Program-made: the position numbers and the translations under genes
Source of the DNA: a virus
Taxonomy: Duplodnaviria > Heunggongvirae > Uroviricota > Caudoviricetes
Reading direction: 5' to 3' (one strand)
IMG/VR virus record: IMGVR_UViG_2531839532_000012
Span: 1 to 32,455 of that record
Length of the DNA: 32,455 nt
The notes under the pieces: generated by a model
What the model saw: only the letters and a program-made list of their open reading frames with translations
Told to the model about the DNA's origin: nothing
The model's database searches: none
Shown here: positions 16,953-31,440 of the stretch, piece by piece
Position numbering within the stretch: the stretch's first letter is position 1
Layout: each line of letters opens with the position of its first letter

Positions 16953-17510
16953 TTAAAGCTGCATCAACCTTTCCACCAGTTTATCTCTGCGAACAACAAA
17001 CCAACCATTGGCTCTCGCCAGTTCCAGCCATGACTCAAGGGAAATAACAATATCATCATCCCGTAACTGAATTGTGGAAACAGTGACACCGCCTCTCTGA
17101 TAACAGAGAACTCGCGTGTCGTAACTTTTCTGGCATGAAACTGGCGTTGACGGATCCTTTTGACTGAAATAGCAGTCTTCCAGTTTTTCGAACACATCCC
17201 ATGCCTGATCGGTTTCGAGCATTTTGGCGTGGCGTGCTGCGCCTCGTTCTGTCCAGAGGATGAGGGAGCGGGCTTTGGGTGAAACTGGATTTTGTGAGTA
17301 GTTTAAAGCGACCCGCAATTCTTTAAGGTCATTACCAACAACTTTGAAAAAGTGTTTCCCTTCAACGAAGCGTACTTTGTTCTCATGATGATTCTGGCGA
17401 ATACGCACCGGCTCAGTGCCGTAAAGCTGCGCCAAAAGTTCGGTGGTAATAACAGGAATCTGGTTATGGGTGATCGGGGAGAGAGTTTCAACAGAGATTT
17501 GAGTGGTCAT
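16953..17510 (-). CDS. Antirepressor-like protein (185 aa)
   Basis: N-terminus MTTQISVETLSPITHNQIPVITTELLAQLYG...FVEGKHFF resembles the N-terminal domain of phage antirepressors. GGAG upstream. Confidence 0.5.
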   Translation of the reverse strand: MTTQISVETLSPITHNQIPVITTELLAQLYGTEPVRIRQNHHENKVRFVEGKHFFKVVGNDLKELRVALNYSQNPVSPKARSLILWTERGAARHAKMLETDQAWDVFEKLEDCYFSQKDPSTPVSCQKSYDTRVLCYQRGGVTVSTIQLRDDDIVISLESWLELARANGWFVVRRDKLVERLMQL

Positions 17511-17673
17511 AACGATAACTCCGTACATTTGGACATTATCGCCACCGTCAGGTGCTAATCATCGTGGTGGCGAACTGTGCGGGGTTAGCACTACCGGGTA
17601 CGGAACCCGGCGAGCCTTTCGGCTCCCCCACACAGCCCGCCATAAATCGCGAATGTGACTGTGCAAACGATAT

Positions 17674-17697
17674 GAAAAAAAGACGCGGGCGCGTCTC
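17674..17697 (-). terminator. Rho-independent terminator downstream of the late promoter (tR'-like)
   Basis: Minus strand GAGACGCGCCCGCGTCT followed by TTTTTTT, about 90 nt downstream of the Q stop. Confidence 0.55.
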
Positions 17698-17751
17698 ATA
17701 TCGCTCCGTAAACATCCGGGGTGCTAATCCCGACGCCAGATTTTGCTGGCG

Positions 17752-17790
17752 CGTGAGGAATATAGCCCCGGATAACAGATTGAGTCAACA
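17752..17790 (-). promoter_or_regulatory. Candidate late promoter PR' (TTGACT-N18-TATATT) with adjacent hairpin (possible qut/pause region)
   Basis: Hexamers read on the minus strand overlapping the Q stop codon. Followed by hairpin CGCCAG-caaaat-CTGGCG and then the terminator. Confidence 0.45.
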
Positions 17791-19296: not shown

Positions 19297-19548
19297 CTAA
19301 CATGATGCTCTGACTCGCAATTCATCCAGCAGTTTATCATTTCCCATAATGTCACTTACCCTCATCGGTAAAAAAATTGCCTTTCGACCATTACGATACA
19401 TCATTGATTTTGGGGTTTCAGGGAAGTAATCCATTTCGACTATAACTGACAGGTCATCACGACGTATGACTGCGTATTTGCTACTAAATAGTCTCTTTAT
19501 TTTTTCCACGATGCTTCCAGGTTTATAAGTACAAACGGTTATATCCAC
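19297..19548 (-). CDS. Hypothetical ORF (83 aa, GTG start; 45 aa if ATG 19434)
   Basis: Open frame without convincing SD. Low confidence. Confidence 0.3.
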   Translation of the reverse strand: MDITVCTYKPGSIVEKIKRLFSSKYAVIRRDDLSVIVEMDYFPETPKSMMYRNGRKAIFLPMRVSDIMGNDKLLDELRVRASC

Positions 19549-19690
19549 ATAGAGACAAAAATATTAATCTGAAAAATATTTATTTCACGCCGTATATTTG
19601 ATTGTTTAATGTGCAGGTACAATGACTTTTATTTTTTGTTGTGTATATAATCAAATATATGGTTATTTTTCACCCTGCGCATTCAGCGCG

Positions 19691-19717
19691 CAACAAAAAA
19701 CCCGCCGAAGCGGGTTT
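19691..19717 (-). terminator. Terminator at the 3' end of hok mRNA (AAACCCGC-ttcg-GCGGGTTT + U-run)
   Basis: Perfect hairpin with TTCG loop followed by TTTTTTG on the minus strand, about 70 nt past the hok stop. Confidence 0.5.
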
Positions 19718-19784
19718 AGTGCGGGTGCGTTGAGGATGCCTGACACATGAGAGGTGGCGAGGGATTTCTCCCCCGCCTGGTCTC

Positions 19785-19940
19785 TTACTCCTCAGATTCG
19801 TAAGCTGTGAAGACAGCAACCTCCGTCTGGCCGGTACGGATTCGTACCTCGCAGAGGTCTTTCCTCGTTACCAGTGCCGTCACTATGACGGTTAAACAGA
19901 TGACGATCAGGGCGATTAACATCGCCTTTTGCTGCTTCAT
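19785..19940 (-). CDS. hok: Hok/Gef-family type I toxin (51 aa)
   Basis: MKQQKAMLIALIVICLTVIVTALVTRKDLCEVRIRTGQTEVAVFTAYESEE, near-identical to recalled HokD/RelF. SD GGAGAAG. Confidence 0.85.
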   Translation of the reverse strand: MKQQKAMLIALIVICLTVIVTALVTRKDLCEVRIRTGQTEVAVFTAYESEE

Positions 19941-19996
19941 AGCCTGCTTCTCCTTGACCTTTCGGTCCGTAAGAGGCTAATCTCTATGTGTCGCAT
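19937..19996 (-). CDS. mok-like leader ORF (19 aa) whose stop overlaps the hok start
   Basis: ATG 19996, stop TGA overlapping hok ATG (ATGA). Analogous to mok coupling in hok/sok loci. Confidence 0.4.
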   Translation of the reverse strand: MRHIEISLLRTERSRRSRL

Positions 19997-20055
19997 AGAT
20001 ATGGCCTCAGATTAATGTTAAGCGTCTTGCAGGACGCGTAATGTTAACTGGGGCT
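19954..20055 (+). ncRNA. sok: Candidate Sok antisense RNA with promoter (TTGACC-N18-TAATCT), antisense to the hok leader
   Basis: Strong promoter hexamers on the plus strand opposite the hok translation-initiation region. RNA ends are inferred. Confidence 0.4.
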
Positions 20056-20150
20056 TTTCTCTATCTGCCGTTGGTGTTCATGCCCGAGGCAGATAGCCTC
20101 AAGCACCCGCAGCAATTCTACTTAACTCCCGTCACCTCGCCAATATGAAA

Positions 20151-20240
20151 TCAATCAGAAAGGCGATCCATAAGAACAACAGCAAGACAATAAATTGCCA
20201 TTACAGCCGCAATAGCCAGCGCACATTTCAGAACCAGCAC
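20151..20240 (-). CDS. Candidate small hydrophobic peptide (29 aa, GTG start)
   Basis: GGAGG 5 nt before GTG. MLVLKCALAIAAVMAIYCLAVVLMDRLSD is a single TM helix. Lies just upstream of the hok locus. Confidence 0.25.
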   Translation of the reverse strand: MLVLKCALAIAAVMAIYCLAVVLMDRLSD

Positions 20241-20401
20241 GATGACCTCCCATATTTGACGTACACGCGCATGATTCAATATGCAGCAACCTATTTCCTG
20301 CTTCAATATAAAATCAGGTATTGTTGTATAACTATTTAACTAACTCCCTATCCCCACATCTCAGGCGCTCAACGTCTGTGTGCGGGGCGTTTTTTAATAC
20401 C

Positions 20402-20485
20402 TTACCCCCAGCGGCAAATCGCATACACCACCAGCGCCACCGCCATTGCAATTCCTACCGTTGTGAATGCTTCAGGCCATGTCAT
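20402..20485 (-). CDS. Candidate small hydrophobic peptide (27 aa)
   Basis: GGAGG 10 nt before ATG. MTWPEAFTTVGIAMAVALVVYAICRWG. Confidence 0.25.
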   Translation of the reverse strand: MTWPEAFTTVGIAMAVALVVYAICRWG

Positions 20486-20606
20486 CGTAAAACATCCTCC
20501 ACACCAACCAGTCCGTTCTGCTTCAGATATTCCATCGCATTATCAGGTAGATTGCTTGATTTATTGACGCTTTTTAACGAACTGGCTAATCGCTTAACCA
20601 ACATTG

Positions 20607-21017
20607 TTAATTCGTTAACCTGTTTTCCGGATGCTTGTGGATTGTCAGTTTACCAGAAGTGGCGGTACAGTCGGCGTTCCCACTCTTATCCTCCTGCGAC
20701 GGTTTTGCTGCCAACTGACTGGCATATTTGTTAATGGTAACGATAAGCTCTTGCTCGGCCTCATCCAGACAATCACCGATACCTCGCCTGTCACCGTCAA
20801 AATCATCGAAATCGGCACGAATCCTGGCAACCTCCCGGATTGCGGACAACACTTCACCAGGAATAAGCGGAGAGTTGCCCGATAGTGCATTCTGCTCCAG
20901 TGATGCCAGTGCAATCCGTGCCAGCTCACGAATCTCACCGCCGTCTATATCGTCAATGTCATCACGGCCAGAAATGTTAGCCAGCCATTGCAGTCGCTCT
21001 TTGGTAATAGTGGTCAT
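20607..21017 (-). CDS. Hypothetical acidic phage early protein (136 aa)
   Basis: GGAG 7 nt before ATG 21017. Confidence 0.5.
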   Translation of the reverse strand: MTTITKERLQWLANISGRDDIDDIDGGEIRELARIALASLEQNALSGNSPLIPGEVLSAIREVARIRADFDDFDGDRRGIGDCLDEAEQELIVTINKYASQLAAKPSQEDKSGNADCTATSGKLTIHKHPENRLTN

Positions 21018-26176: not shown

Positions 26177-26731
26177 GTGAATCGGCGCTTTTTTTAGCAT
26201 CACGTTCATTGAGTAGTGACAAAAACTCATTCTCAGCATTCTCGATTTCCGAGAAAAATTCTTGATGAGTTGTTTCTCGCTGCGATCTGATGCTGAAAGC
26301 TAAAGCAAGTAGCCAGGCTTTGTCTTTATTATCCATCGGAATACCTTATTACTGGTTGTGTGAGAACTCCAGTATACCACCGAGCCTGAAGTGGTAAAAA
26401 GACAGGCGCACAACACGAAGGCGCATTTCCGGTATTCATAAAGAGTCGGTCTTGTCTGTTAAATTTAAATGGTGGGAGTGCGCCTCCGGTTGTAAATAAC
26501 GACATTGCTATGTGTAGTCTTTGGCGGCATCAGTTCTACTCCGTGGCTGCCCTGTCGCCCCTTTTTAAAGTGAATTTTGTGATGCGGTGAATGCGGCTAA
26601 GCGCACGCGGCACAGTTAAAAGCATCAGTGTTATGGGTGGATTATCCGGCGTTAATTGTTAACTGGTTAACGTCACCTGGAGGCACCAGGCACCGCATCG
26701 ACAAAATTCATTTGTAAAAATGGAGATAATT

Positions 26732-31064: not shown

Positions 31065-31259
31065 ATGAGATATGACGATGTTAAACCATGTCCGTTTTGT
31101 GGTTGTCCATCTGTTACGGTGAAAGCAATTTCAGGATATTACCGGGCAAAATGCAACGGATGCGAATCCCGAACTGGCTATGGTGGAAGTGAAAAAGAAG
31201 CACTCGAAAGATGGAATAAACGAACTACTGGAAATAATAATGGAGGTGTTCATGTATAA
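31065..31259 (+). CDS. ralR: RalR/Lar-like restriction-alleviation protein / type I toxin (64 aa)
   Basis: MRYDDVKPCPFCGCPSVTVKAISGYYRAKCNGCESRTGYGG... zinc-finger-like Cys pairs. Matches recalled Rac RalR length and sequence. Confidence 0.55.
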   Translation: MRYDDVKPCPFCGCPSVTVKAISGYYRAKCNGCESRTGYGGSEKEALERWNKRTTGNNNGGVHV

Positions 31260-31440
31260 AATAACTGCCACTATTGAAAAAGAAGGTGGCACTCCTACTA
31301 ACTGGACAAGATATTCAAAATCTAAATTAACGAAATCAGAATGCGAAAAAATGCTCTCAGGGAAAAAAGAAGCAGGCGTGTCCAGAGAGCAGAAAGTAAA
31401 GCTGATAAATTTTAATTGCGAGAAACTTCTGTCCTCGTGA
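31252..31440 (+). CDS. YdaC-like small protein (62 aa)
   Basis: GGAGG 5 nt before an ATG that overlaps the ralR stop. MYKITATIEKEGGTPTNW.... Confidence 0.5.
   Translation: MYKITATIEKEGGTPTNWTRYSKSKLTKSECEKMLSGKKEAGVSREQKVKLINFNCEKLLSS

Follow-up and report, generated by a model that had tools for sequence, protein, structure and literature searches.

We analyzed a 32,455-nucleotide (nt) stretch of viral DNA (the window: positions 1 to 32,455 of the Caudoviricetes record IMGVR_UViG_2531839532_000012 in IMG/VR), focusing on the interval 19690-20500, which contains a hok/sok-type type I toxin-antitoxin locus and, immediately upstream of it, two short open reading frames (ORFs) for hydrophobic peptides of 29 and 27 amino acids (aa). 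Within a lambdoid prophage, the interval likely combines three mosaic modules that are independent of one another and share the strand of the rightward early operon (Table 1): a complete hok/sok cassette of the hokD/hokW type; a 27-aa gene for a putative single-pass membrane peptide (M-x-WPEAF, a hydrophobic helix, and RWG); and a 29-aa gene, which would encode a second hydrophobic peptide, within a 131-bp cassette that is usually found directly upstream of the hok promoter. Both peptide genes would be transcribed with the early operon. The hok/sok locus is known biology that was annotated beforehand, and nothing new is added to it here. It is the two mini-genes that give the interval its modest interest: the 27-aa ORF is present in 1,634 (30%) and the 29-aa ORF in 1,927 (36%) of 5,426 complete Escherichia coli genomes, and the 27-aa ORF is also found in Shiga-toxin phages. 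If translated, they would add two to the phage-borne membrane peptides that act in lysogeny or upon induction, beside a membrane toxin.

The two small ORFs upstream of hok

A sequence-only reading of this DNA had described the two ORFs as unannotated, Shine-Dalgarno-preceded frames, each encoding a single hydrophobic helix, and in these respects it was borne out. GGAGG lies 10 nt before the ATG of the 27-aa ORF and GGGAGG (20246-20251) 5 nt upstream of the GTG of the 29-aa ORF; each peptide has one strongly hydrophobic segment, with best 15-residue Kyte-Doolittle averages of 2.63 and 2.76, respectively; and neither frame is annotated in the RefSeq record of the genome that carries the window sequence.

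The predicted 27-aa product consists of one hydrophobic helix with a conserved N-terminal WPEAF and a C-terminal Arg-Trp. In E. coli genomes, homology often spans exactly this ORF, from the stop codon to the ATG, with unrelated sequences on both flanks. The genes upstream vary (DUF551, ead/Ea22-like, EaA, and hypotheticals of the PHROG 660 type); each of them ends in a TGA that overlaps the ATG of the ORF (ATGA), and in nearly every upstream context, a GGAGG-like motif is located 7-10 nt before this ATG, within the upstream coding sequence. This arrangement suggests that translation of the ORF would normally be coupled to the end of an accessory gene of the Ea22/EaA/DUF551 type that precedes it. 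The sequence after the stop codon varies as well: the hok promoter is 41 nt away in 933W, and ParDE, a KilA-N-domain gene, or xis-int is found in other contexts. The 27-aa gene would mark the end of an accessory gene block followed by variable cargo, that is, a recurrent insertion site for hok/sok, ParDE, and the KilA-N-domain gene. The 27-aa stop codon was seen as a recurrent cargo junction in the sampled loci L004, L005, L007, L256, L257, and L258, the ParD/ParE pair being encoded on the other strand.

Copies of the 27-aa ORF were gathered by a degenerate-pattern scan of viral contigs, which yielded 122 intact copies with 48 distinct DNA sequences, 17 of which encode one identical peptide. 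Diverged members of the family (for example, MNWPEAFTAVGVAIAVAFILYSLFRWG and MSWPEAFTTVGIVMAAALGLYSICRWW) keep the 27 codons, and this length is retained in 933W, VT1-Sakai, ArgO145, and Av-05, through up to 45% amino acid divergence. In the comparison with Av-05, the proportion of synonymous differences (pS) in the ORF frame is 0.50-0.69 and that of nonsynonymous differences (pN) 0.08-0.15, for a pN/pS ratio of about 0.1-0.3; neither of the other two frames is free of stops, and in both, pN is no lower than pS. In the main clade, 16 of the 35 distinct mutations are synonymous, against an expectation of 28% (p = 0.019). No signal emerged from a pooled mutation count (the "all" set), which we discarded because chance matches to the pattern in unrelated bacteria had contaminated it.

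These observations bear directly on the alternative that the small ORFs are not genes at all, the conserved blocks being noncoding and the frames incidental. Under this explanation, the 27-aa block would be a module-boundary linker acting as a recombination joint between blocks of phage genes, and the 29-aa block a cis-element of the hok promoter. The placement of both blocks exactly at mosaic junctions fits such an interpretation, as does the fact that annotation pipelines almost never call either ORF. As regards the 27-aa block, it is opposed by the excess of pS over pN relative to Av-05, by the constancy of the 27 codons and the convergence of 17 DNA alleles on one peptide, and by the preservation of the ribosome-binding site inside unrelated upstream coding sequences. 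We consider the noncoding explanation unlikely for the small ORFs, and the 27-aa ORF very likely to be a real gene, judging from these sequence comparisons.

The 27-aa family is widespread in phages and prophages of E. coli. A tBLASTn search detected it in 93 phage records, among them 933W, VT2-Sakai, VT1-Sakai, BP-4795, the rV5-like phage Av-05, and large phages with records of ~99-134 kb; the family also occurs in plasmid records of ~96-98 kb. In the four phage records examined, the ORF was unannotated. In the complete E. coli genomes, it occupies 3,107 places, 163 of these on plasmids, with a maximum of 7 copies per genome. A scan for the WPEAF pattern in one genome per species detected the ORF only in E. 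coli, Shigella flexneri, and one Escherichia sp., in addition to chance matches. Several length variants (P0084, P0090-P0093, and P0095) contain in-frame repeats, (Ala-Met)2-4 or (Ala-Val)2-3, in the hydrophobic helix, and one relative (P0056) has a duplicated N-terminal half.

The 29-aa ORF is part of a 131-bp block that was delineated by its homology edges and that contains the ribosome-binding site, the ORF, and 15 nt running into the hok -35 element. The upstream edge, at 20266, is sharp in ~90 loci. In 87 of the 98 sampled copies, hok/sok comes directly next, the stop codon of the ORF being 8 nt from the hok -35; in the other 11, homology ends at 20136, and unrelated DNA follows, without hok and with no more than a remnant of the -35. 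The frame is intact in 96 of the 98 copies (one of the other two has a frameshifting 2-nt deletion, and one lacks the stop codon), and the GGAG core and the GTG start are kept across three upstream contexts, with a variable spacer between them. In an alignment of 65 unique sequences extending from the cassette to the hok terminator, diversity at codon positions 1, 2, and 3 of the ORF is 0.034, 0.028, and 0.093, respectively (permutation p = 0.012), against flanking noncoding values of 0.05-0.07. The amino acid replacements are conservative (Ala/Val/Thr, Val/Ile, and Asp/Glu). For this block, the noncoding explanation draws on its run into the hok -35, on its adjacency to hok in most copies, and on a coding signal that is only moderate; it is countered by codon periodicity in the right frame, by the retention of the ribosome-binding site and GTG despite spacer variation, and by the persistence of the block after hok loss.

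Several points weigh against reading the two ORFs as genes. No convincing promoter of its own was found for either by scanning, in the window or in locus L006, which represents the commoner context of the 29-aa ORF. The degenerate patterns used to gather copies of the two ORFs hold part of each peptide constant, so that the corresponding codons are biased; after removal of the codons fixed by the search pattern, the third-position signal of the 29-aa ORF drops to p = 0.054, and its synonymous excess is not significant alone (p = 0.1). Furthermore, all known 29-aa copies are at least 82% identical at the protein level, so that pairwise pN/pS values, estimated from the sequences, spread from ~0.24 to 0.8. 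Because the synonymous excess is nonsignificant and the copies are all close relatives, we grade the 29-aa ORF as a probable, not a proven, gene.

For the 27-aa ORF, the point to be weighed is that the gene usually coupled to it is out of frame in the window. A 40-codon frame, the stop of which overlaps the 27-aa ATG, aligns with the final 40 positions of PHROG 660 and PHROG 924 (E = 1e-14 and 8e-13, respectively) and shares homology with the C-terminal end of the 171-aa protein of locus L002, but its frame differs from that of the 136-aa ORF at 20607-21017. As the upstream partner is disrupted, the 27-aa ORF in the window must depend on its own GGAGG, and it may be poorly translated here. In the same region (20482-21017), a 53-residue C-terminal module aligns with the end of a 171-aa protein of strain AVS0193; the annotated 136-aa "hypothetical protein" and the 40-codon frame resemble a single mosaic gene in which the conserved C-terminal module has fallen out of frame.

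The hok/sok locus and its relatives

That the downstream module is a hok/sok locus is virtually certain from its sequence, and the assignment made in the sequence-only reading agrees with every feature open to a sequence test: the toxin domain, the leader recognized by its covariance model, the leader ORF, the antisense Sok, the fold-back element, and the terminator. The 51-aa Hok protein matches all 42 positions of the Pfam HOK_GEF model (PF01848; 82.9 bits against a cut-off of 22, E = 1.2e-23) and PHROG 251, "MokW-like host killing" (E = 6e-33), and its best 15-residue Kyte-Doolittle average is 3.29. With the NCBIfam subfamily model NF007279, Hok scores 51.4 bits, under the strict cut-off of 73; the RefSeq name is still HokD. 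The Rfam model RF01794 matches 20108-19938 on the minus strand over its full length (1-157) with 101.3 bits, against a gathering score of 59, a score well above what chance would give. Because this match is in the hok sense and ends at the hok AUG, it corresponds to the hok mRNA leader, and its complement includes Sok; a covariance-model search had been proposed as a check on the locus, and this is its outcome.

The position of the hok promoter, which occurs at the same site in locus L006, places the transcript start at the first position of the RF01794 match. The resulting 413-nt mRNA has a predicted fold of -176 kcal/mol (z = -8.7), in which the 5' end pairs with the 3' end; the pairing of GGGUGCUUGAGG with CCUCAACGCACCC is present in both the minimum-free-energy and the centroid structures. 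In the system of plasmid R1, such a 5'-3' fold-back keeps full-length hok mRNAs inert. A 3' terminator hairpin had been noted from the sequence, and a scan recovered it, with a T run after the stem. The hok 3' untranslated region (UTR; 19695-19776, minus strand) also gave a subthreshold match to isrK RNA (30.6 bits against a gathering score of 50, E = 2e-4), which probably reflects a generic likeness of one hairpin-plus-terminator to another.

On the opposite strand, positions 20004-20058 are identical to the 3' 55 nt of the 71-nt SokW misc_RNA of 933W at 54 of 55 positions, which places Sok at ~19988-20058; the 5' 16 nt of SokW differ from the window, and so does the leader segment that is paired with them. 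A very stable hairpin followed by a U tail is predicted for the plus-strand RNA 19985-20065 (-32.2 kcal/mol, z = -6.1). The antisense promoter had been called strong. Its sequence and its location stand, being at the position of TTGCCT-17-TAACCT, the sokW promoter of Stx2 phage I/933W, but the -10 hexamer TAATCT agrees with the consensus at only 3 of 6 positions, so that "strong" was an overstatement, and this weak hexamer tells against the assignment. The region's best promoter match is a different one, ATGACT-18-TATAAT at 19622-19651 on the plus strand (10/12), which points antisense into the hok locus; lying within an AT-rich spacer, it may be a chance match.

The 51-aa hok gene was recovered in the ORF list and the 19-aa leader that the sequence-only reading had paired with it by three-frame translation, and the AUGA overlap between the leader stop and the hok start suggests that hok translation is coupled to that of the leader. 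Among 133 sampled hok loci (including L002, L003, L128, L256, and others), 7, the window locus among them, have the separate 19-codon leader, which makes it a minority form. In ~120 of the 133, the upstream ATG lies 57 nt from hok in the same frame, yielding a 70-aa "MokW" (19 aa plus Hok). Minor changes in the length of two leader hairpins, the stems of which stay paired, account for the difference. By their sequences, the separate leader and the in-frame 70-aa form are two coupling architectures inside one close family.

The proposed operation of the window locus follows from these elements. The stable hok mRNA (20108 to ~19696) would be untranslatable as long as its 5' end is paired with the 3' fold-back element. 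The unstable Sok RNA would pair with the start region of the 19-codon leader and block leader translation; because Hok translation hinges on the leader via the AUGA overlap, Sok would block Hok indirectly. Once Sok decays, processed hok mRNA would be translated, and Hok would damage the inner membrane. Sok decay after prophage induction has been reported for the 933W/Sp5 orthologue (PMC8621323), and by analogy with this orthologue, we infer that the window locus is capable of hok expression and killing.

The closest characterized relative is hokW-sokW of the Shiga-toxin phage 933W, the DNA of which is 92.98% identical to the window locus over 413 aligned columns; when the printed sequences are read side by side, HokW of Stx2 phage I has the same residue as the window Hok at 48 of 51 positions. 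The two loci share the promoter -10, the leader structure, the Sok 3' stem-loop, the fold-back element, and the site in a lambdoid prophage, and in 933W, a member of the 27-aa family lies directly upstream of the hok locus. They differ in several respects, apart from the 5' part of Sok and its leader segment. The upstream ATG of 933W shares the hok frame and yields the annotated 70-aa MokW, whereas in the window, a net 1-nt difference creates the separate 19-codon leader. Unlike the window, 933W lacks the 29-aa cassette. Finally, the hok locus follows ead/Ea22-like genes in 933W but lies downstream of replication genes in the window. For hokW-sokW of Sakai prophage 5 (Sp5), HokW toxicity, its rescue by sokW, and the dependence of the system on RNase III and Hfq have been shown experimentally (Takada et al. 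2021, PMC8621323). HokW is 44% identical to the Hok protein of plasmid R1 (PMC8621323), the hok/sok system of which is the founding one (Thisted and Gerdes 1992, cited in PMC8621323). The R1 and window systems have a toxin of one fold family, a leader ORF as the route of antisense control, and a 5'-3' fold-back of the full-length mRNA in common; R1 hok/sok resides on a plasmid and the window locus in a chromosomal prophage. The mok gene of R1 covers most of hok in a different frame, unlike the window leader, which consists of 19 codons ending at the hok start.

The hokD gene (relF) of the K-12 prophage Qin is represented by its coding region and 3' UTR only. Window positions 19696-19954 are 97.3% identical to K-12, the RefSeq name is the same, and a rem-like gene is located downstream in both. 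In K-12, homology stops 14 nt upstream of the hok ATG, and relBE follows; the leader, the Sok gene, the hok promoter, and both small ORFs, all present in the window, are missing. Judging from the sequence, the window locus is the intact ancestral form of the truncated K-12 hokD.

Table 1. Features of the hok/sok locus and the adjoining small ORFs (window coordinates)
Feature	Position	Strand	Basis or remark
Complete hok/sok type I toxin-antitoxin locus	19696-20143	-	Domain, Rfam, scans, folds
hok toxin gene, 51 aa (RefSeq name HokD, WP_000813255.1)	19785..19940	-	ORF list and domain match
mok-like leader ORF, 19 codons, ATG at 19996	19937..19996	-	Three-frame translation; UGA overlaps hok AUG (AUGA)
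hok promoter, TTGGCG-17-TAGAAT	20115..20143	-	Promoter scan, 9/12 matches; same site in L006
Full-length hok mRNA (predicted)	19696..20108	-	RF01794 start to terminator end
5' element of hok mRNA, tac-like, GGGUGCUUGAGG	20097..20108	-	First 12 nt; pairs with 19723-19735
Fold-back element in hok 3' UTR, fbi-like, CCUCAACGCACCC	19723..19735	-	Complementary to mRNA 5' end, one bulged C
Intrinsic terminator of hok mRNA	19698..19717	-	Scan: 8-bp stem and T run; fold -17.2 kcal/mol
Sok promoter, TTGACC (19954-19959), 18-nt spacer, TAATCT (19978-19983)	19954..19983	+	Read from sequence
Predicted Sok antisense RNA, ~71 nt	19988..20058	+	Identity to SokW; hairpin
29-aa ORF, GTG 20240 to TGA 20151, MLVLKCALAIAAVMAIYCLAVVLMDRLSD	20151..20240	-	Probable single-pass membrane peptide
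131-bp conserved cassette (ribosome-binding site, 29-aa ORF, 15 nt into hok -35)	20136..20266	-	Homology edges
27-aa ORF, ATG 20485 to TAA 20402, MTWPEAFTTVGIAMAVALVVYAICRWG	20402..20485	-	Putative phage small membrane peptide family M-x-WPEAF...RWG
Ribosome-binding site of 27-aa ORF, GGAGG	20496..20500	-	10 nt upstream of ATG; inside end of preceding frame
40-codon ORF, stop overlapping 27-aa ATG (ATGA)	20482..20604	-	Out-of-frame C-terminal remnant of upstream accessory gene
Terminator-like hairpin and T6 between the two small ORFs	20352..20395	+	Scan; fold -18.1 kcal/mol, z = -3.2

Possible roles of the small peptides

The sequence-only reading had offered two interpretations of the small ORFs, further membrane-active peptides or remnants of a second toxin copy. 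The second of these found no support. In a search for a second hok copy or remnant, neither ORF matched a Hok model of Pfam or NCBIfam at E <= 1 or gave a BLASTP alignment to Hok at E <= 100, the only DNA repeat linking the regions was a single chance 12-mer, and both ORFs are widespread without an adjoining hok. Since neither resembles Hok, neither is a remnant of a second toxin copy. The first interpretation fared better in one of its two senses: membrane peptides are plausible, with strong sequence evidence for the 27-aa ORF and moderate evidence for the 29-aa ORF, but a toxic activity is unsupported, and no cognate antisense RNA or conserved antisense promoter was found. Our best guess from the sequences is that both are accessory peptides of the phage, with a site of action on or within the inner membrane of the host, and not components of a toxin-antitoxin system, a role that we consider unlikely for them. 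Expression and membrane insertion of both peptides, and whatever activity they may have, are inferred from the sequences.

By general features, the small ORFs resemble small E. coli membrane proteins and toxins, such as YnfS, YnfT, YnaM, TisB, and ZorO: they encode 27-29 aa with one hydrophobic helix, occupy an accessory position in a prophage, and are frequently omitted from annotation. Unlike these, they show no sequence similarity to the small proteins of the K-12 prophages Qin, Rac, and DLP12 or to any library family: no match was found in NCBIfam, Pfam, PHROGs (E < 0.01), or PADLOC. Also unlike the small type I toxins, they have no cognate small RNA that Rfam could detect in 20109-20500, where nothing was found at the gathering threshold or at E <= 1.

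The likeness to TisB and ZorO, which we take to be ~29 aa each, in size and hydrophobicity, together with the proximity of a type I system, raises the question of whether one or both ORFs could be further type I toxins, derived from a degenerate hok or belonging to another small-toxin family, with an RNA of their own. A candidate RNA would end at the terminator-like hairpin between the two ORFs (20352-20395), which is on the strand opposite all neighboring genes and in locus L014 carries a compensatory T-to-C change that turns its bulged stem into a perfect 7-bp stem. This hairpin, however, is limited to the rare window-type arrangement, with only 27 of the 5,426 genomes covering at least 80% of 20109-20500. 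The scan found no plus-strand promoter feeding it, inspection by eye yielded weak matches only, and no antisense promoter for the small ORFs was detected by scanning either in the window or in L006. The leader of the 29-aa ORF in its commoner, L006-type form has an ordinary fold (z = -0.9), so a structured long 5' UTR is unsupported. To this can be added the lack of Hok similarity, of toxin-family matches in the libraries named above, and of any Rfam family in the interval, as well as the presence of the 27-aa gene in Av-05, a member of Vequintavirinae, which we presume to be virulent and in which a post-segregational toxin would make little sense. Altogether, a toxin identity of either ORF appears highly improbable. 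The hairpin may instead stop plus-strand read-through, for example from Sok.

Another conceivable role, specific to the 29-aa ORF, is that of a functional third component of hokD-type loci, for example as a peptide modulating Hok or through transcription into the hok promoter that would alter the 5' end of the mRNA and, with it, the fold-back control. The tight spacing between its stop codon and the hok -35 in the 87 adjoining copies, and the presence of the block in about one third of E. coli genomes, would fit such a role. The experimentally validated hokW-sokW of 933W/Sp5, though, lacks the 29-aa ORF and has the 27-aa ORF abutting the promoter, the 11 loci without hok retain the 29-aa ORF, and the linkage can be explained by shared descent of a Qin-like module. 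A functional partnership with hok is very doubtful. A more far-reaching proposal combines this partnership with a further idea, namely that the 27-aa peptide is an unrecognized, widespread phage small membrane protein, always coupled to the ends of Ea22/EaA/DUF551-type genes, with a host-directed activity such as modulating an inner-membrane protein or excluding phages; we hold this combination to be speculative and unlikely.

The accessory peptides that we favor have largely escaped annotation. The 29-aa ORF is annotated in few genomes (as WP_000960667.1, and as P0044, a "MULTISPECIES hypothetical protein" on 650 contigs) and is unannotated in almost all of its 1,927 carriers, which together hold roughly 2,200 copies. 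Protein-database searches were run with an artificial tandem duplicate of the 27-mer, the E-values of which are not meaningful as such, and with a natural 51-aa TTG-extended frame; the matches were limited to scattered entries from Escherichia and Shigella, called "hypothetical" or "membrane protein." Both ORFs are shorter than the length cut-offs of gene callers and of the enterohemorrhagic E. coli (EHEC; Sakai) ribosome-profiling study examined, which covered ORFs of at least 30 aa. In the literature searched, including the Sakai ribosome-profiling supplements, neither peptide sequence was found, and a search on small-protein profiling in enteropathogenic E. coli or prophages returned nothing relevant. 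The K-12 prophages Qin, Rac, and DLP12 encode no homologue of either peptide, so that K-12 small-protein screens probably missed both. The two ORFs appear to be undescribed in the literature searched and ordinary in kind, that is, short prophage membrane peptides missed by annotation.

Prophage setting

The 1,051 bases around the hok/small-ORF region are 100% identical to the chromosome of E. coli 300709 (NZ_CP025903.1), where the RefSeq annotation shows a lambdoid prophage at the matching region. On the minus strand, the annotated order is a Cro-like regulator, ydaT, replication genes (ydaV-like), DUF1627, DUF977, DUF4406, two hypothetical genes, hokD, a rem-like gene, DUF1367, DUF1364, DUF1133, an ORF6N-domain gene, and lysis genes. 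RefSeq annotates nothing in the 666 bp (19941-20606) that separate hokD from the next annotated gene. The gene downstream of hok (19297-19548, minus strand) resembles rem (PHROG 1813, E = 2e-34); at the equivalent position in locus L006, the gene that follows hokD is annotated as "protein Rem," the RefSeq version in the present genome is shorter (70 aa), and the hok-rem order is the same as in K-12 Qin.

Rfam searches elsewhere in the window detected RalA, DicF, C4, and isrK RNAs, which is consistent with a mosaic Rac/Qin-like prophage. The RalA antitoxin RNA is present in full length at 31258-31436 on the minus strand (RF02694, 219 bits), implying a second type I toxin-antitoxin system in the same prophage (ralR/ralA, as in K-12 Rac). 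DicF small RNA (26509-26560, 55 bits) is on the plus strand, opposite to hok, consistent with a Qin-like leftward early operon. Directly upstream of the ORF6N-domain gene, at 17563-17765 and 16953-17528 on the minus strand, we identified a C4 antisense RNA (77 bits), isrK (74 bits), and a c4 a1/b1 target element (50 bits). Together with the ORF6N-domain gene, this group resembles the P1/P7 immI-type RNA-controlled antirepressor module, here within a lambdoid prophage.

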